Positions 9,957 through 63,618 of a stretch of DNA of 64,000 nucleotides are shown in pieces. A model generated the notes under the pieces. The model was not told the DNA's origin, did not search any database, and saw only the letters and a program-made list of their open reading frames with translations. Location of the stretch: IMG/VR virus record IMGVR_UViG_3300006217_000028, one strand, 5' to 3'. The position numbers were made by a program, and so were the translations under genes. This DNA comes from a virus. Its lineage: Duplodnaviria; Heunggongvirae; Uroviricota; Caudoviricetes. Each line of letters opens with the position of its first letter. Positions within the stretch are counted from its first letter, which is position 1.

Positions 9957-10346
9957 ATGAAGAGAACTCTTAAAAACTCGGTTATGGTTGACATGCTCAT
10001 GCAGCTGAAACCGCTGCTTTCCCGACGTGACAAGATTGGCTATGCCGCTGCCCGGAATCATCGCAGGCTGGCCGAGTGCTTGACCGAGTATGAACGGTTC
10101 CGCAACAGTCTGATTGAGAAGTACGGTGAGTATGAGAAAGATGAGCACGGGAACGAACTCCCGTCAATCTCCCTGAGCTCTACTTCGCCCAATTTCAAAA
10201 TGTTTCTGAGCGAGCTCGCCCCTTACAATGAAATGGAGCATGAGGTGGAACTTATGGAGCTGCCCTACAGTGAGGTAATCGGCAGTTTGTCAGGAGAAGA
10301 AATCCTCGCGATTGACTGGATGCTGGTAGATGGGGAGGAAGAGTAA
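9957..10346 (+). CDS. Hypothetical phage protein (129 aa)
   Basis: Strong RBS AAGGAGG. Stop overlaps the next start (TAATG). Sits in the tail module. Confidence 0.5.
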   Translation: MKRTLKNSVMVDMLMQLKPLLSRRDKIGYAAARNHRRLAECLTEYERFRNSLIEKYGEYEKDEHGNELPSISLSSTSPNFKMFLSELAPYNEMEHEVELMELPYSEVIGSLSGEEILAIDWMLVDGEEE

Positions 10347-11449
10347 TGGCAGATATTTCTTCACAGCTCCAAAAAATACTGGAAGCCATATATGGCGAAG
10401 AGGTCCGAGGTTCTATCCATGACGCTCTGGCGGCCATGAATGTGGAATCCAACGCCGCCATGGAGTTTGCGGCTACGGCAAAGGATTCCGCTATGAACAG
10501 CGCTGCTGCCGCAAAGGCATCAGAGGAGAAAGCAGCCCTGTCCGAATCAGCAGCCAAAGAATCCGAAACTAACGCCGCTGCATCAGAGCAAGCAGCGTTT
10601 GAAAGCGCGTCAGAATCTATTGACGCGGCAAATGCCGCTAAAAATTCTGAAATAAATTCCGCCGCATCCGAGGCCGCAGCTAAGGCATCCGAAACCAATG
10701 CCGCCAACTCCGAATCAGCAGCAAAAGAATCGGAGACTAACGCTGCCGTATCGGCAGCCACTGCTACAGAGAAAGCGGCGGCATCCTCCGCCTCAGCAGA
10801 GGCCGCAAAAGCGTCCGAGGAAAAAGCCGCCGTATCAGAGAATGCCGCTAAGACTTCGGAGACCAACGCCGCATCCTCTGCCTCCACCGCGTCTGAAAAA
10901 GCGGCCGAGGCGTCTTCTTCCGCGTCTGCCGCAAAGGTTTCCGAAGCGAACGCCTCTGATTCTGAAGTGGCCGCGAAAAAGTCAGAGGTTAACGCGTCCG
11001 CATCCGCCAATGCCGCTGCGGCAAGCGAAACAAACGCAAAGGCCTCTGAAACAAGCGCCGCTCAATCTGCCGCTCACGCCATACAGGAGAGAGAAGACTA
11101 CTCCCAATGGGTGGAACAGCAGGAGGCCGCTTTTACTCAGTGGTTCGATGGTATTAAGGAACAATTTGGCGACGACGTTGCGGGCAATCTTACCAACCAG
11201 ATTAACAAAGAAGAAATCGACAGAATCCTGAGTGCGGGTTTTGCGGACGGCGTCAAGGAGTTCAGTGAGGACGGCACAACTATCACCATGACCGCTCCGG
11301 ATGGCCGGACTCTTACCAAGACCTTCACCAACAGCTTTCAGACCATGACGGCTGTTCTCAGGAAAGCCGATAAGACCGTTGCTGCCACACTGACAAAAGA
11401 GTTTGCGGCAGACGGAAGTACAATCAGCACGACTATAACCTACTCATGA
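10346..11449 (+). CDS. Structural protein with Ala/Ser/Glu-rich low-complexity repeats (putative fibre shaft or stalk)
   Basis: 367 aa. The central 200 aa are 10-11-residue repeats (AAKxSETNAAxSExAAKESETNAA). Globular N- and C-terminal ends. Located between Tal and the DGR-targeted fibre gene. Confidence 0.5.
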   Translation: MADISSQLQKILEAIYGEEVRGSIHDALAAMNVESNAAMEFAATAKDSAMNSAAAAKASEEKAALSESAAKESETNAAASEQAAFESASESIDAANAAKNSEINSAASEAAAKASETNAANSESAAKESETNAAVSAATATEKAAASSASAEAAKASEEKAAVSENAAKTSETNAASSASTASEKAAEASSSASAAKVSEANASDSEVAAKKSEVNASASANAAAASETNAKASETSAAQSAAHAIQEREDYSQWVEQQEAAFTQWFDGIKEQFGDDVAGNLTNQINKEEIDRILSAGFADGVKEFSEDGTTITMTAPDGRTLTKTFTNSFQTMTAVLRKADKTVAATLTKEFAADGSTISTTITYS

Positions 11450-11465: not shown

Positions 11466-13976
11466 ATGGCAGAAGAAGATATGCTCTACGGCAAAGCACG
11501 GCATCTTTTCGGCGGCATCGAGCCGTCCAACATGAAAGCTTTTTCCGTAACCGCACCGGGCAGCGGTAGGCCGGTTATCACAGCGGTTCTGCCGGACAAT
11601 ACCGTTATCGATGGTCAGACCCTGTGTACTGTGGCGGGGGCCGTGATTCGCAAAAAGTCCACCGGCTACCCCAAGGACGAGTTCGATGGGGAGAAGGTAG
11701 CGGAAATCGCGGAATCTACTACCTTCACAGACGTCACTGCCAATGCGGACGGCACCTATTATTACGCGGCTTATCCGTTTACCACGCAGGGTGTATATAA
11801 CCGCAACCCGGCTAACCGGGCCGTGTTCAACGAACCAGAGCCTATGGCTGCTTTCACTTCCCGACTGGTATACAGTTCCGCGTCCCAGACCTCCCATGTG
11901 GAGCTGACCGCCACTCTGCCTCGGGGTGCGGCCGGAGCGGTGATTCGTAAATCCACCGTGGGCTATCCACAGGACGAGGAAGACGGCGAGGCGTTCCAGA
12001 ACATCACCGCCAGCACGGTTATCACAGACACAGACGTGGAAGAGGACGTCACCTATTACTATAGCGCCTTTGTCTACACCAGTACCGGAGCTTACAACCG
12101 AGACCCGGCCAACCGGACAAGCTGCACCGTATACGCGGGAGAAGCCCCGGACGACATGGCCGCTTTCAGTGTTGTATGCGACGCGGTCAATCAGGCGAAA
12201 ATCACGGCAACTCTTCCTGGCAACAAGACCGAAGGTGATGTTGAGATTTGCACTGTGGCCGGCGCCATTATTCGCCGCAAGACAGGCAGCTACCCAGTCA
12301 ACGAGACGGACGGCGAGGAAGTTACCGATTTGAAACAGAGCGGTACTTACACCGATATGGGCCTGACCGGCGATACAATCTACTATTACGCCGCTTTCCC
12401 CTACTCCGACCGGGGGATGTTCAACCGTAACCAGACTGCGGAAAATCAGGCAAGCTGTAAGGTGTTCGCTCCGGTTGCTCCCGGCAATATGAAAACATTC
12501 TCTGCCAGTTCCGCGGCCGCCGGCAAAATTGTCCTGACCGCCACTCTGCCGGACAATACCGTAGAGAGCGGGGTGACTACCAGTGCCGTGGCGGGCGTTA
12601 TGATCCGCAGGAAGCTGGACGGCTATCCCGCCAATGAAACAGATGGGACCCTGGTGGCAAACCTGACCGAGAGCGGAACCTACACGGATACGGACATTGT
12701 GGGCGGGCAGATGTACTACTATGGGGCGTTCCCCTATTCCGACAAAGGCCTGTACAATCAAAATGCGGTTCCGGACAATCAGGCCAGCGCCGAGGGTAAG
12801 ACCTATGAGTATCTCTATGGCTATGACCTGGACACTGCCAACAGCAATCCGGCTACCCGGGTCACTTACCCCGCAGACGTGGACAACACGGGCTTTGCCG
12901 CGGCAAAGATGGGAACCAGCGCGTTTAACTATGGCGGCTGGCCCAGCACTCCGGGCGAGAAATTCATGCCCAGGCCCTGTATGCTGACTTTTGCGGGAAA
13001 AGTAGACCACTACCTGAACCCCAATGACTATACAAAGAAAACAGATGGCACGGCCTCTAAAGTTGCGGATACATCCTTTGGCGGAAACGCCATGATGGAA
13101 TGGCCCAAAATCTTTGTAAAGCGTTGGCAGGAGGGCAATATCTACCACTTCCGTGTCTCTGATGTGAAGCTGGATGACGATTTCGAGTGCTGGTCCAACT
13201 ATGACCTCCAGAATCATGAGATTGAGCACTTCTACACGCCAATCTTCTTCGGCTCCAATGTTTCCAGTAAACTTCGCTCCATCAGTGGCCAGGCGAACAG
13301 CGTGTCGACTACTGCTGACCAGGAAATCACCTATGCCAAGGCAAACGGCGCGGACTGGTACACCGAGGTTGTGGCGGACCGTATGCTAATCAACGACTTG
13401 CTGACCATGATGGCCAAGTCTACCGATTTGCAGACCGCGTATGGCTCCGGCAGAACAAAGAGTTCCAACAGCAGCGCGATAGCTCCTGGTACCATGAACA
13501 CAAAAGGAATGTTCTGGGGTTCCACGAATGGTACGGACGGCGTCAAGGTTTTTGGCATGGAAAACTGGTGGGGGAACATTTGGCGGCGTATTGCCGGGTG
13601 GATGCTGGTAAATAGCGTTCAGAAAGTCAAGCTGACTCGCGGAACGAAAGACGGAACTACCGCAGCCGATTATAATACTACCGGCGATGGATATAAGTCT
13701 CTGAGTAATGCTGCGCCTACTGGTTCCAGCGGCGGCTACATTTCAAAATGTAAAACCGAGAAGTTTGGGCGGTTCCCATACGAGTTGTCGGGTTCGGCCA
13801 CAACCTTTGAGTGTGATGCTATGTGGTATTCCACTGGAACACGATACGCGTATGTCGGCGGCGGCTGGAACGATTACCTTCGAGCGGGTCCCTTCTGCGT
13901 GAACCTGGACAATGCGCCGTCGTACTCCAACTCGAGCCGTGGCGCGGCCCTCTCTTGTAAACCGCTTGCGGCCTAG
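11466..13976 (+). CDS. DGR target protein: putative receptor-binding tail fibre with 4-5 tandem about 100-aa Ig/FN3-like repeats and a C-terminal VR-bearing C-type-lectin/FGE-like domain
   Basis: 836 aa. Repeats such as TATLPDNTVxxG..CTVAGAxIRxKxxGYPxxExDGxxV...GTYTD....YYYAAFPYxxxGxxNRN occur 4-5 times (nt 11520-12790). The last about 37 codons are the DGR variable repeat, with ...YAYVGGGWNDYLRAGPFCVNLDNAPSYSNSSRGAAL reminiscent of CLec/FGE-fold VR scaffolds. Confidence 0.75.
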   Translation: MAEEDMLYGKARHLFGGIEPSNMKAFSVTAPGSGRPVITAVLPDNTVIDGQTLCTVAGAVIRKKSTGYPKDEFDGEKVAEIAESTTFTDVTANADGTYYYAAYPFTTQGVYNRNPANRAVFNEPEPMAAFTSRLVYSSASQTSHVELTATLPRGAAGAVIRKSTVGYPQDEEDGEAFQNITASTVITDTDVEEDVTYYYSAFVYTSTGAYNRDPANRTSCTVYAGEAPDDMAAFSVVCDAVNQAKITATLPGNKTEGDVEICTVAGAIIRRKTGSYPVNETDGEEVTDLKQSGTYTDMGLTGDTIYYYAAFPYSDRGMFNRNQTAENQASCKVFAPVAPGNMKTFSASSAAAGKIVLTATLPDNTVESGVTTSAVAGVMIRRKLDGYPANETDGTLVANLTESGTYTDTDIVGGQMYYYGAFPYSDKGLYNQNAVPDNQASAEGKTYEYLYGYDLDTANSNPATRVTYPADVDNTGFAAAKMGTSAFNYGGWPSTPGEKFMPRPCMLTFAGKVDHYLNPNDYTKKTDGTASKVADTSFGGNAMMEWPKIFVKRWQEGNIYHFRVSDVKLDDDFECWSNYDLQNHEIEHFYTPIFFGSNVSSKLRSISGQANSVSTTADQEITYAKANGADWYTEVVADRMLINDLLTMMAKSTDLQTAYGSGRTKSSNSSAIAPGTMNTKGMFWGSTNGTDGVKVFGMENWWGNIWRRIAGWMLVNSVQKVKLTRGTKDGTTAADYNTTGDGYKSLSNAAPTGSSGGYISKCKTEKFGRFPYELSGSATTFECDAMWYSTGTRYAYVGGGWNDYLRAGPFCVNLDNAPSYSNSSRGAALSCKPLAA
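13837..13947 (+). repeat. DGR variable repeat (VR), 3-prime end of the fibre gene
   Basis: About 111 bp roughly 88 percent identical to 14428-14538. At the differing positions the template copy has A, while this copy has G, T or C. Confidence 0.8.
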
Positions 13977-18427: not shown

Positions 18428-18430
18428 CCT

Positions 18431-19481: not shown

Positions 19482-19560
19482 ATAGAAGAAGATCCCGGCT
19501 GTCTATGAGATGCGTCTCAACGATGGCCGGGATTTCTTTTATATTTAAGGAGGAAATGAG

Positions 19561-19765
19561 CATGTCTAAAATATCATACTTATGTAAAGGTGAACGAGAA
19601 TGTTCTACAAATCCTCATTGTTTCAAAAATGGTGGAGAATGTAGATATAGTGACCGAGTACAAGACGCCGTAAATTTTGTAGAATTCCCTTATCCTGGAA
19701 GTGATTTTTTTGTAGAGCAGAGTGAGTTTATTTGCCCGGAATCAGTCCTACCAGATGACCGATAA
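19561..19765 (+). CDS. Cys-rich small protein (68 aa)
   Basis: RBS AAGGAGG. CxxxxxxC...C...C pattern and DAVNFVEF motif. Confidence 0.4.
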
Positions 19766-19844
19766 TCTCGGCAACATCTTTGGCGCCGTTTACAAATCGA
19801 TTTTGACTAGGGTGGAAGTGTAACATTAGAGCATCCTTCTGCTT

Positions 19845-26558: not shown

Positions 26559-27407
26559 ATGAAATTGTTCAAGTCATTAAGCAGAGTCTGTTTCAAGGCG
26601 TGTATGAGCTTAAAACGAGGCTCACCTACTATTCTGACATGTGTTGGCGCTGTTGGATTTGTAGCAACTGTAGTGATGGCTGTGCGTGCTACGCCGAAAG
26701 CAGTTAAGTTGATAGAGAACGACAGCCTAAAACAACACGACGGCGACCCATATGCGTATACAAAGAAAGAGGCGGTTCGCTCTGCCTGGAAATGTTACCT
26801 TCCCTCCGCAGCCGTAGGCGCAGCGACTTTAGCCTGTATGTTTGGTGCAAACGCTTTGAACAAACGGCAGCAAGCGTCTATTGCTAGTTTATACGCCCTT
26901 GTGGACCGTTCTTATAAGGAGTATCGCAGTAAGGTCAAGGAACTTCTTGGGGAAGACGGAGACAAGCAGATCCGAGAAGAAATAGCCAAAGACAAGTGCG
27001 CCGAAACACGTCCGCCTGAAGAGGGTTACTTGCTATTCTGCGATGAGTATCGAGGGGAGTGTTTTGAGCGCACCATGACGCAGGTCATCCAGGCAGAGTA
27101 TCATTTTAACCGCAATTTTGTACTGCGGGGCGAGGCCAGCTTGAATGAGTTCTACAGTTTCTTGAACTTGGAGCCGATTGATGGCGGTGACGAAATCGGC
27201 TGGGACATTGGTTTTGGAGAGGAATTCGCAGGATATTCCTGGATAGATTTTGAGCACGAAACATTTACAATGGAAGACGGCATGGAATGCTGCTTGATAA
27301 ACTATCCATTTCCGCCAGTTCATCTGTTAGCTACTCTCGAAGACGTTGAGGAGTACAATAAAATGCTGGAGGCGTATTATCCGCAAAAATCGCAGGCTCT
27401 GTTATGA
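26559..27407 (+). CDS. Membrane-anchored protein, paralogue family member 1 (282 aa)
   Basis: N-terminal signal-anchor SPTILTCVGAVGFVATVVMAVRATPKAVKLI plus conserved segments shared with 27630-28397 and 29459-30400 (SAxxGAxxLAC...N..NKRQQA; GWDIGFG). Confidence 0.6.
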   Translation: MKLFKSLSRVCFKACMSLKRGSPTILTCVGAVGFVATVVMAVRATPKAVKLIENDSLKQHDGDPYAYTKKEAVRSAWKCYLPSAAVGAATLACMFGANALNKRQQASIASLYALVDRSYKEYRSKVKELLGEDGDKQIREEIAKDKCAETRPPEEGYLLFCDEYRGECFERTMTQVIQAEYHFNRNFVLRGEASLNEFYSFLNLEPIDGGDEIGWDIGFGEEFAGYSWIDFEHETFTMEDGMECCLINYPFPPVHLLATLEDVEEYNKMLEAYYPQKSQALL

Positions 27408-27629: not shown

Positions 27630-28397
27630 ATGGCTAAGATCAATTTTTCAGCCATTGCCAAAACTTTTGGCCGAGGTTTGAAGGAACGAAGTCCTGAAAT
27701 CCTGGTTGGTATAGGTATCGTCGGAATGATAGGTGCAGCTATTATGGCGGTAAAGGCTACACCAAAAGCCTTGGAGCAGATTAAAGAAACTGAAAGGGAA
27801 ACGAAGGAGTCGCTCACTCCTAAAGATACTTTCAAGGTAACGTGGAGGAATTATGTTCCGTCCGTAGTAACGGGGACACTCTCGGCGGCCTGCATTATTG
27901 GCGCAAATTCTATACACCTGCGTAGGAAAGCAGCCTTGTCGGCGGCATGCGCTTTGTCAGAAACAGCATTGGCAAACTTCAAATCTCATGCCATCGAGCG
28001 TATCGGCGAAAAGAAAGTTAAGGAGATTGCGGACGATGTTGCAAAAGAGCAAATTGATAAGAACCCGGTTTCTGACAAAGAGATCATCTTCACGTCTAAG
28101 GGCAATACCCTTTGCTACGACCCATGGTGTGGCAGATATTTCAGAGGAGACATAGACTACATCCGGAAAGCAGAATATTATCTCAATCAAGAGATGCAGT
28201 CCATGGGTTATACATCGCTGAATAATTTCTACTATCTGATAGGCCTCGACGAAACCAGGGTTGGAGAAACGTTGGGGTGGAACATTGCAAATGGCCGGGT
28301 GGAACTCGACTTGAGTTCTCAGCTTGCAAAAAACGATGAGCCATGCGTTGTTTTGGGTTTTTATAAAGATCCCCATTACGATTTTGAGGGCCGGTAA
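27630..28397 (+). CDS. Membrane-anchored protein, paralogue family member 2 (255 aa)
   Basis: SPEILVGIGIVGMIGAAIMAVKATPKALEQI plus the conserved core shared with members 1 and 3. Confidence 0.6.
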   Translation: MAKINFSAIAKTFGRGLKERSPEILVGIGIVGMIGAAIMAVKATPKALEQIKETERETKESLTPKDTFKVTWRNYVPSVVTGTLSAACIIGANSIHLRRKAALSAACALSETALANFKSHAIERIGEKKVKEIADDVAKEQIDKNPVSDKEIIFTSKGNTLCYDPWCGRYFRGDIDYIRKAEYYLNQEMQSMGYTSLNNFYYLIGLDETRVGETLGWNIANGRVELDLSSQLAKNDEPCVVLGFYKDPHYDFEGR

Positions 28398-29458: not shown

Positions 29459-30400
29459 ATGAAAAACCTTGCTGTATCCGGCGCTTTGCAAAAGAAAATT
29501 AGCATGGCCGGACTGAAATTGAAAAAATACTCGCCAGAGATCCTGTTGATTGGTGGGGTTGTAGGGGTGGTGGCCACGATCGTGTTGGCCTGTCGTGCTA
29601 CTACGAAAGTTGGTGATGCCCTGTCAGAGGTTGCAGAGACCTCCGAAAAAATCAACGGCGCTCTTGCTGCTGGAGTAATTCGCCAGGCTTCTGACCCGGA
29701 AAAAGAAGAAAAGTATACGGAGGATGATGCCAAGCAAGACATGACTATTGCATATGTTCATACAGCGGTCAGGTTTGCGAAACTGTATGGTCCGGCGGCT
29801 CTTCTTGGCGCAGTGTCTATCTCCAGTATAGTCCTCTCCCACAATATCATGAATAAGCGCAATCAAGCTGTTTCTGCAACATTGGCAGCTGTTACAGCCA
29901 GCTACAGTGGTTATCGTAAGAGAGTAGCCGAGCGTTTCGGTGACGAGGTTGAGCGTGAACTCAAATATGGCATCAAAGCTCGGAAGTTTGAGGAAACGGT
30001 TACAGATGAGAAAGGCAAGGAAAAGAAAGTAAAAAGCACTGTTAATGTCGCCGACCCCAATGTAGAGGACCCCTACCTGCTCTGGTTTGATGATGTTACA
30101 AGACACTATGAGCCGAATCACGATTACAAGATGATGTTCCTGAAACAGGCCCAGAATCACGCGAACGACAAGCTCCGGGCGCAGGGATACTTGTTCCTCA
30201 GCGACGTGTATGACATGTTGGATATTGAGCGAACAAAAATGAGTCAGTGCGTAGGCTGGGTCTACCGGCCAGAGGATGACAGCCGGGACAACTATGTTGA
30301 CTTTGGTATCCAGGAGCTGAACAAGGTTTCCGGAGACACATACGAGCCCTCTATTTCGTTGTGCTTCAACGTGGATGGCAATATTCTCGATATGATTTGA
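29459..30400 (+). CDS. Membrane-anchored protein, paralogue family member 3 (313 aa)
   Basis: SPEILLIGGVVGVVATIVLACRATTKVGDAL plus the conserved core (NKRNQAVSATLAAV; GWVYRPEDD). Confidence 0.6.
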   Translation: MKNLAVSGALQKKISMAGLKLKKYSPEILLIGGVVGVVATIVLACRATTKVGDALSEVAETSEKINGALAAGVIRQASDPEKEEKYTEDDAKQDMTIAYVHTAVRFAKLYGPAALLGAVSISSIVLSHNIMNKRNQAVSATLAAVTASYSGYRKRVAERFGDEVERELKYGIKARKFEETVTDEKGKEKKVKSTVNVADPNVEDPYLLWFDDVTRHYEPNHDYKMMFLKQAQNHANDKLRAQGYLFLSDVYDMLDIERTKMSQCVGWVYRPEDDSRDNYVDFGIQELNKVSGDTYEPSISLCFNVDGNILDMI

Positions 30401-31823: not shown

Positions 31824-34800
31824 ATGTTTGATTTTCTGATGATTTCAACTCGAAGTACAAAGCGCGGCGTGATAGAGATCTATCCTAAGTTCATCATTAA
31901 GAACAGCTCAGACTTAATGATACGAGGCGGAGACTTTTACGCTGTATGGCTTGAAGATCGGGGATTATGGTCTACTGACGAGCAGGACGTAGTCCGATAC
32001 ATTGATCGAGAGCTTGATATTTACGCAAAAGAAAACAGCCAGCGCTTTGACTCCAACATACAGGTTCTGCATATGTGGGACAATGAATCCGGGATGATAG
32101 ACTCCTGGCACAAATACTGCCAAAAACAAATGTGGGATAACTACCACATGCTTGACGGCAAGCTGGTATTTACCAACAGCCCGACAGACAAGAAGGATTA
32201 TTCCAGCAAGAGGCTCACATATCCCTTGGAACCCTGTGAGACACCTGCCTATGACCGTCTGACATCGGTTCTGTATACCGACGAGGAGCGTCATAAGTTT
32301 GAATGGGCGATTGGCGCAATTGTTACTGGCGCATCAAAAAAGCTACAAAAGTTTATGGTGTTCTATGGTGCTGCCGGAACAGGTAAGTCGACCATCGTGA
32401 ACATTATCGACCAGCTATTCGAGGGGTATTCCGTTGCGTTTTCAGCGAAGGAACTGGGTTCAGCGAGCAGTGCGTTTGCTATGGAACAGTTTCGGGCGAA
32501 CCCGTTGGTAGCGATAGACAATGACGCAAAACTGTCTCGGATTGACGATAATACTCGCATCAACAAGTTGGTGTCCCATGAAGTTATGACTGTAAATGAG
32601 AAGTTCCAAAAGACCTATACGAATAGTTTTCAATGTTTCCTTTTCCTGGCCACGAACGAACCTGTGAAAATTACGGACGCAAAATCCGGCCTAATCCGGC
32701 GACTGATCGACGTAGTCCCAACCGGAGATAAAATACCGGTAAAAGAGTATAACTCGCTTGTGGAACAGGTAAAGTTCGAGCTGGGGGGTATTGCCTGCCA
32801 TTGCCGGGATGTGTATCTCGCTGACCCGCACAGGTATGACGATTATATCCCAACTCGGATGTTGGGAGCGACTAATGACTTTTACAACTTTGTGCTGGAC
32901 TCCTATCCCATTTTCAAACAGGACGATGGGGTTTCAGCCAGTGCGGCCTGGGCCATGTATAAAACTTATTGTGAGGAGGCAAGGGTGCTCAATCCATTAT
33001 CCAGCAGGCCGTTTAAGGAGGAACTAAAGAACTACTTCCGTGAGTTCAAAGACCGGCCCACCCTATCGGACGGTACAAGACCTAGGCAGTATTATAGCGG
33101 ATTTCGTTTTGAGAAGTTTATGTACGATCAAAACCAGGAAAGTGCAAATTCGGAAACAGGGCCGGCCTGGCTTAACTTAGCAGAGCAACCGTCTATATTT
33201 GATACTGTGTGTGCAGACTGTCCCGCTCAGTATGCGTCATCAAAGGATACGCCAACTAGAAAATGGGATAATGTTGTCACTAAGCTGTCGGATTTGGATA
33301 CTTCAAAGGTTCATTATGCGAAGGTGCAGGAGGCTCATATAGTCGCCGACTTTGATATGGTGGACGAAAATGGTAACAAGTCTTTAGAACTCAACATGAA
33401 AGAGGCCGTCAAATGGCCACCAACATACGCCGAACTAAGCAAAAGCGGTGCCGGTATCCATCTCCATTACATGTATACAGGTGATGTGTCAAAACTAAGC
33501 CGGGTATATGACGACCATATTGAAATTAAAGTATTTACAGGCAAGTCTTCACTCCGCCGCAAATTGACAAAGTGTAATAATCTCTCAATATCGGAGATCA
33601 GCTCTGGCTTGCCATTGAAGGAGGACAGCAAAATTGTAAATTTTGAATCTATAAAAAACGAGAAAGGGCTTCGCACACTGATAAAGCGTAATCTCGCTAA
33701 AGAGATACACCCAGGAACGAAACCAAGTGTGGATTTCATATATAAGATTTTGGAGGATGCATACAATGATGGCCTGAACTATGATGTGACCAATATGCGC
33801 GGTTCAGTCCTTGCTTTTGCGGCTGGCAGCACACATCAGGCCGATTACTGCATCAAACTTGTCAACAAGATGAAGTTCAAGTCGGACGAGCCGTCCGAGC
33901 CTATCGCTAATACTTTAGAAGAAAAGCCGCTGGTGTTCTATGATGTGGAGGTCTTCCCTAACCTATTCCTTGTGAACTGGAAGGTTCAGGGCGAGGGAAA
34001 GCCAGTTGCCAGAATGATTAACCCTAAGCCGAAAGAACTTGAGGAACTTCTTAGCTTTAGGTTAGTTGGATTTAACTGCCGCCGGTACGATAACCACATC
34101 CTGTATGCAAGATATATCGGATATGATAATGAGCAGTTGTACAAGCTTTCGCAGAAAATTATATCCGGAAATTCAAACTGTTTCTTTGGGGAAGCGTATA
34201 ACCTCTCCTACACGGATGTATATGACTTTTCCAGTAAAAAGCAGTCGCTCAAAAAGTTTGAGATCGAGCTTGGCATTCACCATCAAGAGCTGGGATTGCC
34301 TTGGGATCAACCAGTGCCGGAGGAGCTGTGGATTAAAGTTGCAGAGTATTGCGACAACGATGTTTTGGCTACCGAGGCGGTGTTCAATGCTCGTAAAGCT
34401 GATTTCACAGCTAGGCAAATTCTGGCCGACGTGGCTGGTATGACTGTCAATGACACGACCAACTCGCTGACTACCAGGATTATCTTCGGTAAGAACAAGA
34501 AACCACAGAACGTCTTCAACTACCGTAACATGGGGGTAATTCCTACAGACGAGGCGGTATGTACCCATACTATCACTCCGGATGGCGTCTTCTTTACCAA
34601 TTTCGGAGATGAGGATTACACCGTATTTGACGAGTGCGGATGTCCTATCTTTCCGGGGTATAAGTATGAAAACGGCAAGTCTACATATCGCGGTGAAGAA
34701 GTTGGCGAGGGTGGATATGTCTACTCTGAGCCTGGTATGTACAGCAACATTGCCCTGCTTGATATAGCCTCTATGCATCCGTCGAGCATCGTTGCCGAGA

Positions 34801-35876
34801 AACTGTTTGGAGAAGAGTACACGCAGCGATTCAAAGATATTTTGGACGCTCGTATCGCCATTAAGCACAAGGACTTTGATAAAGCCCGGAAGATGCTGAA
34901 TGGCGCTTTGGCGAAATATCTGAACGACGAAAATGCTGCTGCCGACTTGGCTCAGGCTTTGAAAATAGCCATTAACTCGGTGTATGGCCTGACTGCCGCA
35001 AACTTTGAGAACGCATTCCGCGATGCTCGGAACAAGGACAATATAGTTGCCAAGAGAGGCGCACTGTTCATGATCAACCTCAAGCATGAAGTACAGAAAC
35101 GCGGCTTCACCGTTGCTCATATCAAAACAGATTCCATCAAGATTCCGGACGCAACTCCCGAAATCATTCAGTTTGTTATGGATTACGGTCAGCAGTACGG
35201 CTACAACTTTGAGCATGAGGCTACTTATGACCGTATGTGCCTGGTAAACGACGCCGTGTATATTGCTAAATACGCAACGGTTGAGCGGTGTGTTGATTTG
35301 TACGGGCAAGACTATGTACTCAACGCCAAGGATACAGTGAAAGACTGTAAGAAACATCCTGGCGAATGGACTGCTACCGGAACCCAGTTCCAAGTTCCCT
35401 ACGTGTTCAAGAAACTTTTCAGCAGGGAAGACATCAAGTTCGAGGATATGTGCGAGACGAAATCGGTCAGCACCGCCATCTATATCGACCGTGATCCCGA
35501 GGAAGCCTTACGCTACATCAATAATCCAAACATGACTGTCGATACCGAGAGTGATATTTGGCTGGACAACAAGCATTTGCTGCACTTTGTCGGTAAAGTA
35601 GGCTTATTTACACCGGTAAAGCCTGGAGCAGGAGGCGGTACTTTGGTTCGTAAAAGCAAGGCGAAAGACGGTACAGATAAGTACGATGCCGTTACCGGGA
35701 CGAAGGGGCATAACTGGATGGAATCCGAGATGGTGCGTATCTTGAACAAAGAAGACTATATTGACCGCTCTTACTATGATAATTTGGTTACTGAAGCGGC
35801 CGAGTCCATCTCAAAGCACGGTGATTTCGAGTGGTTCACATCGGACGATGTTTTGGAGGCTGCCAAGACCGCGTAA
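31824..35876 (+). CDS. Multidomain replicase: SF3 (D5/P4-type) helicase + primase-like domain + family B DNA polymerase with 3-prime to 5-prime exonuclease
   Basis: 1350 aa. Walker A VFYGAAGTGKST. The P4/D5 helicase C-terminal signature ...SHEVMTVNEKFQKTYTNSFQCFLFLATNEP. Primase-like DxD (IVADFDMVDENG) and sGxGxH (SGAGIHLHYMY). PolB Exo I YDVEV and Exo II (delta-type) YCDNDVLAT. Motif A LLDIASMHPSSI (DxxSLYPS), motif B KIAINSVYG (KxxxNSxYG), motif C HIKTDSI (YGDTDS-like). Confidence 0.8.
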   Translation: MFDFLMISTRSTKRGVIEIYPKFIIKNSSDLMIRGGDFYAVWLEDRGLWSTDEQDVVRYIDRELDIYAKENSQRFDSNIQVLHMWDNESGMIDSWHKYCQKQMWDNYHMLDGKLVFTNSPTDKKDYSSKRLTYPLEPCETPAYDRLTSVLYTDEERHKFEWAIGAIVTGASKKLQKFMVFYGAAGTGKSTIVNIIDQLFEGYSVAFSAKELGSASSAFAMEQFRANPLVAIDNDAKLSRIDDNTRINKLVSHEVMTVNEKFQKTYTNSFQCFLFLATNEPVKITDAKSGLIRRLIDVVPTGDKIPVKEYNSLVEQVKFELGGIACHCRDVYLADPHRYDDYIPTRMLGATNDFYNFVLDSYPIFKQDDGVSASAAWAMYKTYCEEARVLNPLSSRPFKEELKNYFREFKDRPTLSDGTRPRQYYSGFRFEKFMYDQNQESANSETGPAWLNLAEQPSIFDTVCADCPAQYASSKDTPTRKWDNVVTKLSDLDTSKVHYAKVQEAHIVADFDMVDENGNKSLELNMKEAVKWPPTYAELSKSGAGIHLHYMYTGDVSKLSRVYDDHIEIKVFTGKSSLRRKLTKCNNLSISEISSGLPLKEDSKIVNFESIKNEKGLRTLIKRNLAKEIHPGTKPSVDFIYKILEDAYNDGLNYDVTNMRGSVLAFAAGSTHQADYCIKLVNKMKFKSDEPSEPIANTLEEKPLVFYDVEVFPNLFLVNWKVQGEGKPVARMINPKPKELEELLSFRLVGFNCRRYDNHILYARYIGYDNEQLYKLSQKIISGNSNCFFGEAYNLSYTDVYDFSSKKQSLKKFEIELGIHHQELGLPWDQPVPEELWIKVAEYCDNDVLATEAVFNARKADFTARQILADVAGMTVNDTTNSLTTRIIFGKNKKPQNVFNYRNMGVIPTDEAVCTHTITPDGVFFTNFGDEDYTVFDECGCPIFPGYKYENGKSTYRGEEVGEGGYVYSEPGMYSNIALLDIASMHPSSIVAEKLFGEEYTQRFKDILDARIAIKHKDFDKARKMLNGALAKYLNDENAAADLAQALKIAINSVYGLTAANFENAFRDARNKDNIVAKRGALFMINLKHEVQKRGFTVAHIKTDSIKIPDATPEIIQFVMDYGQQYGYNFEHEATYDRMCLVNDAVYIAKYATVERCVDLYGQDYVLNAKDTVKDCKKHPGEWTATGTQFQVPYVFKKLFSREDIKFEDMCETKSVSTAIYIDRDPEEALRYINNPNMTVDTESDIWLDNKHLLHFVGKVGLFTPVKPGAGGGTLVRKSKAKDGTDKYDAVTGTKGHNWMESEMVRILNKEDYIDRSYYDNLVTEAAESISKHGDFEWFTSDDVLEAAKTA

Positions 35877-36550: not shown

Positions 36551-37429
36551 ATGGCGAAGTATAAGAAACCGGATTGGAAACCGAATGATGCGCCAAATAG
36601 CTGGAATGCTCGCAAAGAAAAGAAACATCCCGAACCATTAAAAAAGTCCAGTCATTACCCATGGAGCTCTAGCGAAAACGTTTCGACATCGCTCAATCAT
36701 CAAGGGGAGTTTTCGAAAAAGATAAAAACTCTTGCGTATAGCAGACCCCTTTTTGAAGTGTGGAATGATTTTGTTATGCTTGCGTCCTGCGCCATATCCA
36801 ATGCGTTTGACAGAATGAATTTCGAACAGCGTGAGAATCTCTATATGCGTATTATCAGTAAGTATAGGGACAACGACCGTTATGTGTTTACAGAGTTACT
36901 TACGCTAACAGTTGACGCGCTGGAAAAGAATCCAGACCAGGACTTCCTCGGGAGTATCTTTATAGAGTTAGGGCTGGCCAATAAGCACAACGGACAATAT
37001 TTCACACCGTACGATGTTGCAAAAGCTATGGCAGAGATAACTCTTGGTGACGTTGAGGACACCTTGGCCAAGAGTGGAGCTGTTACAATACATGACTCAT
37101 GCTGCGGCAGCGGCGCTCTTTTAATTGCATCCATAAACGTAGCGCGTAAGAAGTTAAGTTGTAGTGGGATAAATTTCCAAAACGTTGTCTTTGTTTCGGC
37201 TCAAGATATTGACCCAACTGTGGCGGCCATGTGTTACATCCAGCTTTCACTTCATGGTGTAGCGGGGCACGTTAAGGTTGGAAACGCCCTTGTGGAGCCT
37301 GTAGCGACTACAGATTACTTCGAGAATTACTGGTTTACACCTATGTACTTTTCTGATGTATGGCGTACCCGGAGAACAATTGCGGCATTCATGGACTTGA
37401 TAGGGGGTATTGACAATGAAAAAATTTGA
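36551..37429 (+). CDS. HsdM-like N6-adenine methyltransferase homologue, truncated, lacking the NPPF catalytic motif
   Basis: 292 aa. DFLGSIFIELGLANKHNGQYFTPYDVAKAMAEI (HsdM N-terminal substrate-binding region). Motif I IHDSCCGSGALLIA (DPACGSG). ...DIDPTVAAMCYIQLSLHGV matches E.N..T..LA.MNL.LHGI. NPPF is replaced by ...YWFTPMYF..., and the protein ends about 150 aa short of a full HsdM. Confidence 0.55.
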   Translation: MAKYKKPDWKPNDAPNSWNARKEKKHPEPLKKSSHYPWSSSENVSTSLNHQGEFSKKIKTLAYSRPLFEVWNDFVMLASCAISNAFDRMNFEQRENLYMRIISKYRDNDRYVFTELLTLTVDALEKNPDQDFLGSIFIELGLANKHNGQYFTPYDVAKAMAEITLGDVEDTLAKSGAVTIHDSCCGSGALLIASINVARKKLSCSGINFQNVVFVSAQDIDPTVAAMCYIQLSLHGVAGHVKVGNALVEPVATTDYFENYWFTPMYFSDVWRTRRTIAAFMDLIGGIDNEKI

Positions 37430-38016: not shown

Positions 38017-39582
38017 ATGAGTATTGAACTTCGTAATCACCAGCTTGACGCAGTGCAGCGAATGCGTAACGGCTGTATCCTTTGCGGCGGGGTCGGTTCT
38101 GGCAAGTCCAGGGCGGCCCTGTCCTATTATTATCTTGAACAAGGCGGCGATCCCATCAGTTTGACGGGCGGCGAATATATGCCAATGGATGATACCAGAA
38201 TTCAAGACCTATATATCATCACTACCGCCAGAAAGCGCGATACGCTGGAATGGAACGGTGAACTCATACCGTTTCTGATGACCGCTGGCACTGAGAGCAA
38301 ACTATACAATCATAAAGTAATAATAGATTCCTGGAACAATATAGGAAAGTATTCGGATGTTACAGATGCTTTCTTTATATTTGATGAACAGAGGGTGGTT
38401 GGCTCTGGCGCATGGGTCAAAGCGTTCCTAAAAATCACCATGCGGAACAACTGGATTCTTTTATCAGCAACCCCAGGGGACACATGGTCTGACTATATTC
38501 CGGTGTTCATTGCTAACGGATTCTATAAAAATCGAACGGAGTTTATCCGCGAGCATATCATTTATAAGCGGTTCAGCAAGTTCCCGCAAGTAGACCGGTA
38601 TGTTAACACCAAAAGGCTTATTCGACTACGCGACCGCATCTTGGTAGACATGGATTTCGACAGACAAACTGTTTCCCATCACGAGGATGTACATGTCGGG
38701 TATGATGTTCTTGCCTATAAAGCGATAAAACGTGACCGTTGGAATCCGTTCGAGGATAAACCCATCAAAGACGCAAATGAGTTCTTTCGACTTCAAAGAA
38801 AGCTGGTAAACTCTGACGAGTCTCGCAGCGTCGCGGTTTTGGAGCTGATGGAAAAACATCCCAAAGCCATCATCTTCTATAACTTCGACTACGAGCTTGA
38901 TATTCTGAAAGAACTGGGTTACGCTGAAGGGACAGAAGTGGCAGAGTGGAACGGCCATAAGCATCAACCCATACCAGAAGGCGACGCTTGGGTCTACCTG
39001 GTTCAGTATAACGCCGGCTGTGAAGGATGGAACTGCGTTAAGACAGATACCATCATTTTCTACTCACTGAACTACAGCTATAAGGTGATGGAGCAAGCTT
39101 CTGGACGGATAGACAGGATGGACACGCCGTATAAGGATTTGTATTACTATCATCTGAAGTCAAACAGTTGGATTGACATCGAGATCAGTAAGTCGTTGGC
39201 TAATAAAAAAGACTTTAATGAGGGGGCGCATCGAGCAAAGGTGAAAAAGCAATTTGAAGAGGATGCGATAGCGGCTAAAATAGCACAGCGGCGAAGGCAG
39301 GTTCTTGTCCATAGCGTTATCTACTATCGGATGAATGATAACATTGTGGATGATCAAACCTGGTCGAAATGGGCGCTTGAGCTGGAAGAACTGCAAAAGG
39401 CATACCCCGAGATTGCCGCCAGCCTTCCTTATGCTGAAGAATTCAAAGACTTCGATCACTCCAGCGGCTACAATTTGCCTCTGGACGACCCGTGGGCTGT
39501 AAAAAAAGCGAAACAACTATTACAATGGGAAGGGAAAGGTTCTACGTATGGGACGCAAACTGAATTCGGAAACGCCGCTTGA
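38017..39582 (+). CDS. SF2 helicase (DEAD/SNF2-like phage-associated helicase)
   Basis: 521 aa. HQLDAV...CGGVGSGKS (motif I). FIFDEQ (motif II). LLSATPG (motif III). Confidence 0.65.
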   Translation: MSIELRNHQLDAVQRMRNGCILCGGVGSGKSRAALSYYYLEQGGDPISLTGGEYMPMDDTRIQDLYIITTARKRDTLEWNGELIPFLMTAGTESKLYNHKVIIDSWNNIGKYSDVTDAFFIFDEQRVVGSGAWVKAFLKITMRNNWILLSATPGDTWSDYIPVFIANGFYKNRTEFIREHIIYKRFSKFPQVDRYVNTKRLIRLRDRILVDMDFDRQTVSHHEDVHVGYDVLAYKAIKRDRWNPFEDKPIKDANEFFRLQRKLVNSDESRSVAVLELMEKHPKAIIFYNFDYELDILKELGYAEGTEVAEWNGHKHQPIPEGDAWVYLVQYNAGCEGWNCVKTDTIIFYSLNYSYKVMEQASGRIDRMDTPYKDLYYYHLKSNSWIDIEISKSLANKKDFNEGAHRAKVKKQFEEDAIAAKIAQRRRQVLVHSVIYYRMNDNIVDDQTWSKWALELEELQKAYPEIAASLPYAEEFKDFDHSSGYNLPLDDPWAVKKAKQLLQWEGKGSTYGTQTEFGNAA

Positions 39583-60798: not shown

Positions 60799-63618
60799 AT
60801 GGGGGCAATTTTGAACGAGATAGAAGATGTGCTGATGCACTATGGTATGCCGAGGCGTTCTGGACGGTATCCCTGGGGGTCAGGGGAAAATCCCTATCAG
60901 CATAGCGGCGACTTTCTCAGCCGTGTGTATGAGCTTAGAAAGCAAAACTTTACTTACACAGATGAGGATGGTAAGCTGTGGACTGGTGATACCGCTATCG
61001 CGAAGTCTATGGGCCTTACCAGCAGTCAGCTCAGAACTCAGATGAGTCTAGCAAAGGATGAGCGAAGATCACTACAAGTAGCCACGGCCAAGGGGCTGCG
61101 CGAGAAAGGGTACAGCCTTAATGAAATTGCCGAAAAGATGGGTTTCGCAAATGATTCATCTGTGCGCTCCCTACTCAACGAGAATGCTGAGGCTCGTATG
61201 AACAAGGCGAGAAATGTTGCCGATATTCTGCGGAATGAACTGGAAACAAAGAAAATGATCGACGTTGGCGCCGGTGTTGAGCGTGAACTCGGGGTCTCTC
61301 GGGAAAAACTCGAAGAGGCCCTCTATATTTTGCAGATGGAAGGTTATCCCGTCTACGGTGGTGGCGTTGCGCAGGCTACCAACAAAGGCAAGCAAACCAA
61401 CCTGAAAGTTCTATGCCAACCGGGTACGGAACACAAAGAGATGTACGAATACGGTGAGATACAGTCGCTTATCGACTATACTTCCGATGATGGCGGCGAA
61501 ACGTTTCGCAAGGCGTTTCAGTACCCTGAAAGTATGGATTCTGGCCGGCTACAAATTCGTTATGCGGAAGATGGCGGTGTCAACAAAGACGGCGTGATTG
61601 AACTTCGCCGAGGCGTTTCTGACTTGTCGCTAGGCGAATCCAACTATGCTCAGGTTCGAATTCTTGTCGACGGAAACCGGTATATCAAAGGTATGGCGGT
61701 TTATGGAGATGATGCTGACTTCCCTCCAGGGGTCGATGTAATCTTTAACACAAACAAGAAAAGCGGCGTTCCAAAGATGGATGTACTAAAACCCATCAGC
61801 GCTGACCCCGACAATCCCTTTGGGTCCCTTATTAAAGAGCATGGCGGGCAAAGCACCTACATCGACAAAGATGGTAAAGAAAGGCTGTCTCTTATCAATA
61901 AGCGCGCTGAAGAAGGCGATTGGGGGGATTGGAGCGACAATCTTCCCTCCCAGTTCTTATCAAAGCAAAGTATGCCGCTTATCAAGAAACAGCTTAATCT
62001 GGCTGCCGCTGATAGAGAGGCTGAATTCAACGAAATCTGTGCTCTTACCAATCCAACCGTTAAGAAACGGCTGTTACAATCGTTCGCTGATGATTGCGAT
62101 GCAGCGGCTGTGCATCTGAAAGCAGCGGCATTGCCAAGACAAAAGTATCAGGTAATTCTACCATTGACTTCCGTCAAGGACGCAGAAGTATATGCTCCTA
62201 ATTACCATGATGGCGAGACTGTGGCTCTTATTCGGTACCCCCATGGGGGTACTTTCGAGATACCTATCCTTAAGGTAAATAACAAGCTTCCTGAAGGGCA
62301 GAGAGTGCTTGGAAAGACCCCAGCTGACGCTATCGGAATAAATAAAAAGGTTGCTGATCGGTTATCAGGCGCTGACTTTGATGGGGACACGGTTATGGTA
62401 ATTCCCTGTAATTCCTCCCGGTCTAATGTGAAGATTACCTCGACTCCTCCTTTGAGGGGGCTTGAGGGATTTGACCCCAAAGATAAGTACCAGTATGACA
62501 CAAAGACCATGGACTCTGCCGGTAATGTTCACTATTACCGTAATGGGGTCGAATTCAAAGCGATGCGGAATACCCAGACAGAGATGGGTAAGATTTCCAA
62601 CTTGATTACGGATATGACGTTGAAAGGAGCCTGTCAGGATGAAATAGCCCGTGCCGTCCGGCACAGTATGGTTGTCATCGATGCTGAAAAACATGGCTTG
62701 GACTATAAGCGCAGCGCCCAGGAAAATGGTATATCCGCCCTTAAAAAGAGCTACCAGTACCGAGTTGATGAAGACGGTACTGTTCATGACGGAGCGTCAA
62801 CCCTTATTTCCAGGGCCAGCTCTGAGAAGTCGGTACCCAAGCGGCGTGGCAGTCCACAGATAGACCCTGATACTGGCGAGCAGAGCTGGAAACTTGCTAG
62901 AGATAGTGATCGTTTCTACACTGTGGAAAAAGTTAACAAGCGAACCGGCGAAGTAAAAACCGTGCAAAAAGAGCGAACTCAGCAGAGCACACAAATGGCC
63001 GAGACTCGTGACGCTAGGCGTCTGTCCTCCGGTACAAAACAGGAAGAAGCCTACGCTGATTATGCTAATCGGATGAAAGCACTTGGCAATAAAGCGAGAA
63101 AAGAGATGGTTTCGACTGGCCGCATAAAGTATGATGCCTCAGCTAAAGCGGTCTACAAGAAAGAAGTCGATTCTCTTAATGCAAAGCTGAATGTATCCTT
63201 GAAGAATGCTCCACGCGAACGCCAGGCTCAGACAATGGCCAACGCTACCATGAAGGCTAAAAAGCAAGAGTATCCAGACATGACTAAGGCTGAAGAGAAA
63301 AAAGCGAGTCAGCAAGCTCTTACTGCATCGCGCTTAAAAGTTGGTGCACAGCGCAGCCCGATTAAAATTACTGATCGTGAATGGGAAGCGATTCAAGCAG
63401 GCGCAATCACTGAGAATCAACTGTCAAAAATTCTTAACAATGCGGACATTGACGACATCCGGAAAAGAGCAACGCCTCGGGCAACGACACAGCTCAGCCA
63501 GTCTAAAATCAGTTTGATCTCCTCTCTCAAGGCGTCTGGCTACACTACGTCGCAAATCGCTGCTCGTCTCGGCATATCGTCTTCTACTGTAACAAAGTAT
63601 CTCAATGGAAAGGGGTGA
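60799..63618 (+). CDS. Putative YonO-like single-polypeptide two-barrel RNA polymerase with N- and C-terminal sigma-region-4-like HTH modules
   Basis: 939 aa. ...ALIRYPHGGTFEIPILKVNNKLPEGQRVLGKTPADAIGINKKVADRLSGADFDGDTVMVIP aligns with the beta-prime DPBB catalytic loop [48 protein letters not shown] (R.P, EP.L, ADFDGD..MaV.P). HTH-like GYSLNEIAEKMGFANDSSVRSLL at aa about 95-120. GYTTSQIAARLGISSSTVTKYL at the extreme C-terminus. Size is close to SPbeta YonO. Confidence 0.45.
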   Translation: MGAILNEIEDVLMHYGMPRRSGRYPWGSGENPYQHSGDFLSRVYELRKQNFTYTDEDGKLWTGDTAIAKSMGLTSSQLRTQMSLAKDERRSLQVATAKGLREKGYSLNEIAEKMGFANDSSVRSLLNENAEARMNKARNVADILRNELETKKMIDVGAGVERELGVSREKLEEALYILQMEGYPVYGGGVAQATNKGKQTNLKVLCQPGTEHKEMYEYGEIQSLIDYTSDDGGETFRKAFQYPESMDSGRLQIRYAEDGGVNKDGVIELRRGVSDLSLGESNYAQVRILVDGNRYIKGMAVYGDDADFPPGVDVIFNTNKKSGVPKMDVLKPISADPDNPFGSLIKEHGGQSTYIDKDGKERLSLINKRAEEGDWGDWSDNLPSQFLSKQSMPLIKKQLNLAAADREAEFNEICALTNPTVKKRLLQSFADDCDAAAVHLKAAALPRQKYQVILPLTSVKDAEVYAPNYHDGETVALIRYPHGGTFEIPILKVNNKLPEGQRVLGKTPADAIGINKKVADRLSGADFDGDTVMVIPCNSSRSNVKITSTPPLRGLEGFDPKDKYQYDTKTMDSAGNVHYYRNGVEFKAMRNTQTEMGKISNLITDMTLKGACQDEIARAVRHSMVVIDAEKHGLDYKRSAQENGISALKKSYQYRVDEDGTVHDGASTLISRASSEKSVPKRRGSPQIDPDTGEQSWKLARDSDRFYTVEKVNKRTGEVKTVQKERTQQSTQMAETRDARRLSSGTKQEEAYADYANRMKALGNKARKEMVSTGRIKYDASAKAVYKKEVDSLNAKLNVSLKNAPRERQAQTMANATMKAKKQEYPDMTKAEEKKASQQALTASRLKVGAQRSPIKITDREWEAIQAGAITENQLSKILNNADIDDIRKRATPRATTQLSQSKISLISSLKASGYTTSQIAARLGISSSTVTKYLNGKG

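Follow-up and report, generated by a model that had tools for sequence, protein, structure and literature searches.

A predicted GP55-type four-in-one replicase encoded by a temperate siphophage of a gut Firmicute

The fusion of a helicase, a primase and a DNA polymerase of family B (PolB) in one polypeptide is not new, and it characterizes a large described family. A computational survey listed gp55 of Lactococcus phage 1706 as a fusion of an SF3 helicase, an AEP primase and a PolB (Kazlauskas et al., NAR 2016; PMC4889955), and GP55 was later shown to act as a helicase, an RNA primase, an exonuclease and a polymerase (Zhang et al., NAR 2025; PMC12205980). Its domains follow one another as SF3 helicase, PriS-like AEP, alpha-helical accessory domain (aHD) and PolB with exonuclease, and its authors put the number of homologues above 1000, most of them from human-associated phages (PMC12205980). 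The SF3-AEP-PolB fusion is not mentioned in the 2018 paper of Kazlauskas on AEP families, and our search for later publications on GP55 yielded the 2025 paper alone. The sole other helicase-primase-polymerase triple fusion in the 2016 survey, Pas55 of Actinoplanes phage phiAsp2, joins an SF3 helicase, a DnaG primase and a PolA (PMC4889955). By its description, Pas55 obeys the same logic of a replisome core held in one polypeptide, but with non-homologous Toprim/DnaG primase and family A polymerase modules.

We analyzed a 64,000-nucleotide stretch of viral DNA (IMG/VR virus record IMGVR_UViG_3300006217_000028; hereafter the window), which belongs to a temperate siphophage that falls in the FP_oengus/1706 group and has a gut Firmicute as its host, whereas the host of phage 1706 is Lactococcus. 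A reading of the sequence alone had proposed that a single uninterrupted ORF fuses an SF3 helicase, a primase and an exonuclease-proficient PolB, and this is borne out by the ORF listing, the motifs and an end-to-end match to the family profile phrog_4210 (Table 1). The ORF starts with ATG, preceded by a ribosome-binding site, GGAGGAG, whose end lies 13 nt upstream. Residues 3-1345 match positions 2-1291 of the 1304 of phrog_4210 (1976 bits, E = 0), and BLASTP aligned residues 19-1334 collinearly with residues 22-1298 of GP55 (846 bits, E = 0). This alignment spans 97% of the protein at 38% identity, a figure that drops to only 29-33% within the helicase region and the C-terminal region. All nine motifs quoted in the sequence-only reading lie where it had placed them, one under a wrong label (see below), and each occurs exactly once in the ORF; the motif residues are invariant or near-invariant in an alignment of 242 family members. 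The motif set and the end-to-end profile match are far beyond chance. Moreover, the GP55 residues validated by mutagenesis (K189, D509, Y655, F667, D712, E714, and D949) are all identical in the window protein, which, judging from its sequence, can be classed as a fairly divergent member, of known kind, of the GP55 'four-in-one replicase' family.

Table 1. Features of the replicase and its genomic setting, numbered along the protein and along the window.
Feature	Residues	Window positions	Strand	Basis or content
Replicase ORF, GP55-type four-in-one	1-1350	31824..35876	+	1350 aa + stop codon; ORF listing, phrog_4210, BLASTP to GP55
Helicase region	1-434	31824..33125	+	Beta-rich N-terminal domain, D5N-like helices, SF3 ATPase core, winged-helix-like C-terminal part
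Small beta-rich N-terminal domain of helicase region	about 1-100			
SF3 ATPase core	180-293	32361..32702	+	Pfam DUF5906, E 4.4e-13, over cut-off
PriS-like AEP primase catalytic domain	about 455-600	33186..33623	+	Motifs I, II, III region
Alpha-helical accessory domain (aHD)	about 610-685	33651..33878	+	AF2 secondary structure
3'-5' exonuclease (DEDDy) domain of PolB	about 700-890	33921..34493	+	ExoI, ExoII, ExoIII residues
Polymerase domain	891-1350	34494..35873	+	Palm, fingers, thumb, divergent C-terminal region
Clade-specific segment	905-942	34536..34649	+	Between exonuclease and palm domains
YonO-like RNA polymerase		60799..63618		

The AF2 models (pLDDT 84.4 and 87.7) matched the folds of D5-like SF3 helicases, of the NrS-1 AEP domain and of family B polymerases. 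The first of these matches, the DUF5906 hit and the catalytic residues uphold the proposal of a D5/P4-like SF3 helicase at the N-terminus. The residues in question are the Walker A lysine K188 (in GAAGTGKST, residues 182-190), the Walker B D234, the sensor-1 N278 (in LATNEP, residues 275-280) and the arginine finger R292/R293, all invariant among the 242 sequences. K188 aligns with K189 of GP55, whose replacement by alanine abolished helicase activity (PMC12205980). Walker A reads GKS in the window protein and GKG in GP55; thus the unusual UTP/dTTP dependence of the GP55 helicase (PMC12205980) cannot be assumed here, and there is a slight chance that, with its canonical GKS P-loop, the helicase uses ATP instead.

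The central domain, 3' of the helicase, had been described as primase-like on account of a DxD and an sGxGxH motif, a description confirmed by its AEP motifs, its predicted fold and its homology to GP55. Motif I corresponds to D509-F-D511 in IVADFDMVDENG (residues 506-517), motif II to S541-G-x-G-x-H546-x-H548 in SGAGIHLHYMY (residues 541-551), and the motif III region includes E567/K569. Profile comparison with the NrS-1 AEP aligned only 18 columns, all around motif II, and assignment to the AEPs therefore rests on the predicted structure, the motifs and GP55; the AEP, aHD and N-terminal segments submitted to Pfam as isolated queries gave no match. The aHD is modeled as four helices (residues 613-624, 632-648, 656-667, and 673-682). 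Its Y653 and F665, conserved in 232 and 237 of the 242 sequences, align with Y655 and F667 of GP55, mutation of which abolished primase activity (PMC12205980). The AEP-aHD module occurs almost exclusively at about residues 450-700 of proteins of 1240-1520 aa.

AEPs fused to D5-like helicases are found in NrS-1 gp28, vaccinia D5, ASFV C962R, pRN1 ORF904 and the SaPI5 primase-helicase. The window protein does not belong to the NrS-1/pRN1 type of prim-pol-helicase. The order is reversed, the helicase preceding the AEP, and an unrelated aHD, which the GP55 authors consider non-homologous to the helix-bundle domain (PMC12205980), replaces the helix-bundle or PriL accessory domain. Furthermore, a separate PolB is dedicated to DNA synthesis: the AEP of GP55 makes RNA primers only (PMC12205980), whereas NrS-1 polymerizes DNA with its own AEP.

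The C-terminal part was predicted to be an exonuclease-proficient PolB, and it holds a complete 3'-5' exonuclease site, conserved motifs A, B and C, and a PolB fold match. ExoI contributes D707/E709 in YDVEV (residues 706-710). YCDNDV (residues 842-847) had been labeled ExoII in error: its YxxxD pattern (Y842, D846) identifies it as ExoIII, and ExoII proper is NCRRYD (residues 751-756), an NxxxYD pattern in which N751 is found in 240 of the 242 sequences and Y755 and D756 in all. The polymerase motifs are A, with D980 of DIASMHP in LLDIASMHPS (residues 978-987); B, with K1047 of KIAINSVYG (residues 1047-1055); and C, with K1101-T-D1103-S in HIKTDSI (residues 1099-1105). Motif C thus reads KTDS rather than the canonical DTDS. 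This lysine in place of the first aspartate appears, from sequence comparison, to be an active-site peculiarity shared by the whole family; GP55, which carries it too, is active (PMC12205980), and the portion of the GP55 paper available to us does not mention the variant in its text.

The Pfam scan that had been suggested as a check gave a mixed result. DUF5906 alone exceeded its threshold, DNA_pol_B scored 15-17.6 bits, below its cut-off of 23 bits, and DNA_pol_B_exo1 had no match, with either the whole protein or isolated segments as queries. Since only DUF5906 is detected, Pfam is not a valid refutation test for the GP55 family: its models are too insensitive for this divergent PolB clade, the fold and motifs of which are nevertheless those of a PolB. 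Likewise, a phmmer search of PDB sequences with this protein alone as query turned up marginal matches only (E about 0.06), and the family profile performed better. Outside the fusion, the nearest relatives of the PolB domain are the stand-alone PolBs of Septimatrevirus (Pseudomonas phage Ab26 ORF26) and of related phages (phrog_1252). The hhalign match to them has a probability of 98.5% and runs over 518 columns, which take in the exonuclease, palm, fingers and thumb as well as the C-terminus. Motif spacing is near-identical in Ab26, 64 aa between motifs A and B and 54 between B and C, against 67 and 56 in the window protein, and the first aspartate of motif C is replaced in both, by asparagine in Ab26. 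In contrast, Ab26 PolB is a separate protein of 683 aa whose gene adjoins that of a sliding clamp.

What we observe here is the ORF, its predicted domain folds, its full-length homology and the conservation of its catalytic residues; from GP55 we infer every enzymatic activity, how the protein oligomerizes, that its primers are RNA and which nucleotides it prefers. On this analogy, the protein is very probably the replicative enzyme of the phage, endowed with the four activities of GP55. The SF3 domain would unwind DNA by NTP hydrolysis at the Walker A K188, and would also drive oligomerization and strand displacement. The AEP (D509/D511, H546) and the four-helix aHD (Y653, F665) would synthesize short RNA primers de novo on a single-stranded template, PolB (D980, K1047, D1103) would extend them with dNTPs, and the DEDDy exonuclease (D707, E709, D756, Y842, D846) would proofread. 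Hand-off from primase to polymerase could take place in trans between subunits.

Three other explanations were weighed. First, PolB could initiate synthesis by itself, either protein-primed as in phi29 or primer-independent as in piPolB, the AEP-like domain being vestigial or serving another role. Self-primed initiation had been suggested in the sequence-only reading, and phi29-type polymerases and piPolBs do share with the window protein the family B fold and an exonuclease on the N-terminal margin of the polymerase unit; a further likeness is strand-displacement synthesis, as reported for GP55. However, strand displacement by GP55 requires its helicase domain and priming requires its AEP domain, not PolB, and neither a PolB-only fragment nor the D509A mutant performed de novo synthesis (PMC12205980), which by homology argues against a piPolB-like activity. 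A phi29-like protein-primed PolB was rejected on two grounds: hhalign against phi29 DNAP reached 4% probability, and the motif spacing (134 aa between A and B and 75 between B and C in phi29) leaves no room for TPR1 (A-B) or TPR2 (B-C). No terminal-protein family was found among the annotated ORFs, the genome ends lying outside the window. By homology, the AEP would make RNA primers that PolB extends, and self-initiation by the polymerase is highly improbable. Second, the protein could be mainly an initiator primase-helicase of the satellite/plasmid type, comparable to those of SaPI5, P4 alpha or D5, with a polymerase inactive or devoted to repair. This is more improbable still: none of the catalytic residues, whether of the polymerase or of the exonuclease, varies among the 242 sequences, and GP55 fully copied 7.2-kb ssM13 within 0.2 min (PMC12205980). 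We found no second DNA polymerase among those ORFs of the window that were annotated, and the protein is thus the only visible replicase of this phage. Finally, a frameshift or assembly join between a helicase-primase gene and a separate PolB gene might be imagined given the disordered linkers predicted between domains (pLDDT <50 at residues 435-447, 602-609, and 681-699) and the stand-alone PolB relatives of other phages, but this explanation is effectively refuted: the ORF contains no N bases or internal stops and is even in GC content, GP55 was expressed and purified as a single active polypeptide (PMC12205980), and the domain junctions are not artefacts because full-length homologues with the same collinear order exist in 252 independently sequenced phage genomes, cultured isolates included, and in thousands of metagenomic proteins, and because the identical 1350-aa protein (P0001) was found independently in ENA assemblies.

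By sequence, the nearest annotated relatives are the 'helicase/polymerase' of Faecalibacterium phage FP_oengus (AUV56521.1; 59% identity) and the 'DNA primase/polymerases' of actinobacteriophages infecting Gordonia, Arthrobacter, Streptomyces and Microbacterium (45-51% identity), with no less than 99% of the length aligned in every case. Among metagenomic relatives, identity rises to 84%. FP_oengus is of the same phage type as the window, both having a YonO-like RNA polymerase (bioRxiv 10.1101/842583). At the DNA level, megablast of 12 kb around the replicase gene found no match among deposited phages. The neighborhood is syntenic with that of phage 1706, with an SSAP-like gene, an SF2 helicase, an HNH endonuclease and an exonuclease. 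A sliding clamp homologue and tRNAs were not detected in the window.

This protein adds little to current knowledge, as the fusion was catalogued in 2016 and biochemically dissected in 2025 and this is one more gut-phage member, 38% identical to GP55. In practice it is of use only for correct annotation and as a candidate orthologue in comparative enzymology, which could address helicase nucleotide specificity, the role of clade-specific insertions or use as an enzyme for primer-free isothermal amplification. Compared with GP55, the window protein has extra segments at residues 905-942, 1154-1175 and 1222-1249, and lacks the counterpart of GP55 residues 1197-1226. There is a slight chance that the branch of gut Firmicute phages and actinophages, whose P-loop is the canonical GKS, differs functionally from GP55. 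Residues 905-942 and 1222-1249 could be candidate elements for intrinsic processivity, strand displacement or partner binding. The second of these, 28 residues of the C-terminal region, is kept in the window clade and not in GP55. The first, some 38 residues long, is missing from GP55 and its near relatives, with a column occupancy of 0.90 for the window clade and 0.05 for that of GP55, and is predicted to form short beta strands (pLDDT 73-81).

The replicase, which joins an SF3 helicase, an archaeo-eukaryotic primase (AEP), a four-helix accessory domain (aHD) and a DNA polymerase of family B (PolB), is a new member of a known, experimentally characterized family founded by GP55, the "four-in-one replicase" of Lactococcus phage 1706. 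Its residues 19-1334 align with residues 22-1298 of GP55 (BLASTP, 38% identity, 846 bits, E = 0), and identity varies along the protein: N-terminus 29%, SF3 33%, AEP 62%, aHD 42%, exonuclease 47%, polymerase 52% and C-terminus 29%. The profile phrog_4210 ("DNA polymerase", length 1304) covers residues 3-1345 (1976 bits). This nearly end-to-end match and the collinear GP55 alignment bear out the union of helicase, primase and PolB in one polypeptide proposed by the sequence-only reading, whose architectural interpretation is supported. Each of the nine motif strings that it quoted occurs exactly once in the protein (aa 182-190, 275-280, 506-517, 541-551, 706-710, 842-847, 978-987, 1047-1055 and 1099-1105). 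The gene has an ATG start and a GGAGGAG ribosome-binding site ending 13 nt upstream, no ambiguous base or internal stop was found over the whole ORF, and GC content in 2-kb windows is even across the gene (0.459-0.464).

The fusion had been recognized computationally by Kazlauskas et al. (NAR 2016; PMC4889955), who listed gp55 of phage 1706 as SF3 + AEP + PolB. GP55 (1317 aa) was purified by Zhang et al. (NAR 2025; PMC12205980). Its helicase and strand-displacement activity depends on UTP/dTTP and is abolished by K189A or deletion of the helicase domain, its polymerase activity by D949A, and its 3'-5' exonuclease activity by D712A/E714A. RNA primers are made by the PriS-like domain, an activity abolished by D509A, and priming also requires the new four-helix aHD, being lost in Y655 or F667 mutants. 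Given NTPs and dNTPs, GP55 efficiently replicates ssM13 de novo; it dimerizes via the helicase domain, and primase-to-polymerase hand-off occurs in trans (PMC12205980). When 242 full-length members of the family are aligned with MAFFT, all these mutagenesis-validated residues are identical in the window protein: K188 (GP55 K189), D511 (D509), Y653 (Y655), F665 (F667), D707/E709 (D712/E714) and D980 (D949). The catalytic residues are invariant, and Y653 and F665 are kept in 232/242 and 237/242 members, respectively. Also invariant or nearly so are D234, N278 and R292/R293 in the helicase; D509, S541, G542, H546, H548 and E567 in the AEP; N751, Y755, D756, Y842 and D846 in the exonuclease; and S983, H985, P986, K1047, N1051, Y1054, G1055, K1101, D1103 and S1104 in the polymerase.

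The window protein very probably works by the GP55-type mechanism. What doubt remains concerns quantitative properties, namely nucleotide specificity, oligomeric state and the clade-specific segments, rather than the identity of the protein. Its Walker A motif reads GKS instead of the GKG of GP55, the two forms being about evenly split across the sampled family. The segment at aa 905-942, between the exonuclease and palm domains, has an occupancy of 0.90 in its clade versus 0.05 in the GP55 clade, and that at aa 1222-1249 of 0.85 versus 0.00. These differences could have functional consequences relative to GP55.

Among profile libraries, PHROGs gives the decisive evidence for the domain make-up: besides phrog_4210, phrog_1252 ("DNA polymerase") matches aa 687-1140 (E 1e-46), and aa 120-440 are covered by several "DNA primase" PHROGs. 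Of the domains expected from the sequence-only reading, Pfam recovered the helicase through DUF5906 (SF3 ATPase core, aa 180-293, E 4.4e-13), the only model above its curated cut-off; DNA_pol_B, Pox_D5 and other Pfam models were sub-threshold, and separate scans of the N-terminal, AEP and aHD segments yielded no Pfam match. Sub-threshold NCBIfam matches were to a P4-family primase C-terminal model (aa 146-387, E 4e-17) and DNA polymerase II models (aa 962-1105, E 1.3e-8). Against PDB sequences, the family profile found the SaPI5 primase-helicase (E 2.7e-12) and Pol II (E 4e-6).

AlphaFold2 models of aa 1-690 and aa 681-1350, built with 51-sequence alignments, are confident, with mean pLDDT values of 84.4 (low only in linkers 435-447 and 602-609) and 87.7, respectively. 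The aHD is modeled as four helices, in agreement with its description in GP55. In fold, the C-terminal half matches polymerases of family B, namely Pyrobaculum PolB (13.3), Pol delta (12.5), RB69 gp43 (12.3), E. coli Pol II (11.9), Pol alpha (11.8) and phi29 (10.8), as well as many DEDD exonucleases. Since sequence-profile comparison with the NrS-1 AEP aligned motif II only (E 7e-4), the basis of the AEP assignment is the fold, the conserved motifs and the experiments on GP55.

A phi29-like PolB is rejected by motif spacing and hhalign: motifs A to B and B to C are 67 and 56 aa apart versus 134 and 75 in phi29, indicating that this PolB lacks the TPR1 and TPR2 insertions, and the alignment of the family profile with phi29 DNAP spans 51 columns at 4% probability. 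Only a loose analogy holds with the self-priming of piPolB or NrS-1 proposed by the sequence-only reading: the GP55 PolB fragment is unable to start chains and the GP55 AEP makes RNA primers only (PMC12205980). The PolB module is most closely related to stand-alone phage PolBs such as ORF26 of Pseudomonas phage Ab26 (98.5% probability, 518 columns; spacing 64 and 54). The Ab26 gene adjoins a sliding-clamp gene, whereas no sliding-clamp homologue is detectable within the window. Motif C is KTDS rather than DTDS, the first Asp being Lys in 242/242 members, including the active GP55; in Ab26 it is NTDG, with Asn at this position. YCDNDV, previously labeled a delta-like ExoII, fits the ExoIII pattern YxxxD (Y842, D846); ExoII is N751-C-R-R-Y755-D756, and nothing specifically delta-like was found.

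The GP55-type family is large, and its members are already annotated in deposited phages. More than 1000 GP55 homologues, mostly in human-associated phages, have been reported (PMC12205980). By tblastn, 417 records among 50,697 deposited phage genomes matched, 252 of them over at least 80% of the window protein. The top match is the "helicase/polymerase" of Faecalibacterium phage FP_oengus (59% identity), followed by "DNA primase/polymerase" proteins of Gordonia, Arthrobacter, Microbacterium, Curtobacterium and Streptomyces phages (45-51%); Lactococcus phages 1706 and P078 share 37-38%. Weaker, partial matches restricted to the PolB part come from stand-alone polymerases in phages of Pseudomonas, Stenotrophomonas, Xanthomonas, Enterococcus, Listeria and enterobacteria. 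In a 5.8-billion-protein collection, each of the 8000 candidates scored reached E <= 1e-10, giving at least 8000 matches; the best 120 of these 8000 share 69-100% identity and include an identical 1350-aa protein in ENA assemblies. When the AEP+aHD module by itself (aa 450-690) was used for a library-wide HMMER search, 458 clusters at 50% identity matched, of which 228 had E <= 1e-30. Almost all of them are proteins 1240-1520 aa long that carry the module at about residues 450-700, the arrangement of this same fusion; shorter matches look like contig fragments.

The window comes from a temperate siphophage within the FP_oengus/1706/actinophage supercluster, the temperate lifestyle being indicated by the tyrosine integrase. 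It opens with a tape-measure protein truncated at the window start, tail genes and a diversity-generating retroelement (DGR), followed by the integrase and early genes, the replicase, SSAP-like and N6-methyltransferase-like genes and an SF2 helicase, then, farther downstream, genes for an HNH endonuclease, an exonuclease and a YonO-like RNA polymerase. Four of these genes (SSAP-like, helicase, endonuclease and exonuclease) have homologues in orf66-69 of phage 1706. The YonO-like protein matches the putative RNA polymerase of FP_oengus and actinophages, described together with the common ancestry of these phages (bioRxiv 10.1101/842583). phrog_4291 is annotated as "RNA-dependent RNA polymerase"; in Pfam, RdRP is sub-threshold (E 2e-4) while HTH_38 and HTH_7 are above threshold. 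GC content drops from about 0.49-0.55 across the structural (tail) module (1-20000) to about 0.41-0.48 across the integrase, early and replication modules (20001-64000). GC skew is positive across the entire window, in keeping with the location of almost all genes on the + strand, and no tRNA gene was found in the window.

Coordinates of features in the window
Feature	Position	Strand	Evidence or remark
Degenerate tandem repeats, within ORF 10346..11449	10505-11004		42/126-nt periodicity, 63-76% identity
DGR	11466-15774
Tail-protein ORF	11466..13976		variable repeat at its 3' end
Variable repeat (VR)	13847-13956
Template repeat (TR)	14428-14537		just upstream of reverse transcriptase
Reverse transcriptase (RT)	14671-15774		Pfam RVT_1 E 3e-20; phrog_1423
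Tyrosine integrase	21031-22218	+	phrog_1, E 4e-64; between tail/DGR module and early genes
Three paralogous early genes	26559-27407, 27630-28397, 29459-30400	+	phrog_2152, E 1e-72 to 1e-77
Replicase ORF	31824..35876	+	single, uninterrupted, 1350 aa (ORF listing)
Motif C of replicase (aa 1099-1105)	35118-35138		H-I-K-T-D-S-I
N6_Mtase-like protein	36551-37429	+	Pfam E 1e-12; phrog_5696; directly downstream of replicase module
SF2 helicase	38017-39582	+	phrog_62; 40% identity to phage 1706 orf67
Conserved 683-aa protein, function unknown	41975-44026	+	phrog_1735, 899 bits; no Pfam match
YonO-like single-subunit RNA polymerase, 939 aa, C-terminal HTH	60799-63618	+	phrog_4291, 1291 bits

The three paralogous early genes just upstream of the replicase belong to one family of unknown function. 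The SF2 helicase carries an unusual C-terminal appendage, an Nlig-Ia domain (DNA ligase-like N-terminal NAD+-binding domain; Pfam E 7e-27). In the DGR, the 110-nt variable and template repeats are 88% identical, and almost all of their mismatches coincide with adenines in the template, the hallmark of mutagenesis by DGRs. In the tail-gene region, the tandem repeats abound in GCN and TCN codons; their ORF presumably encodes an Ala/Ser-rich repeat protein.
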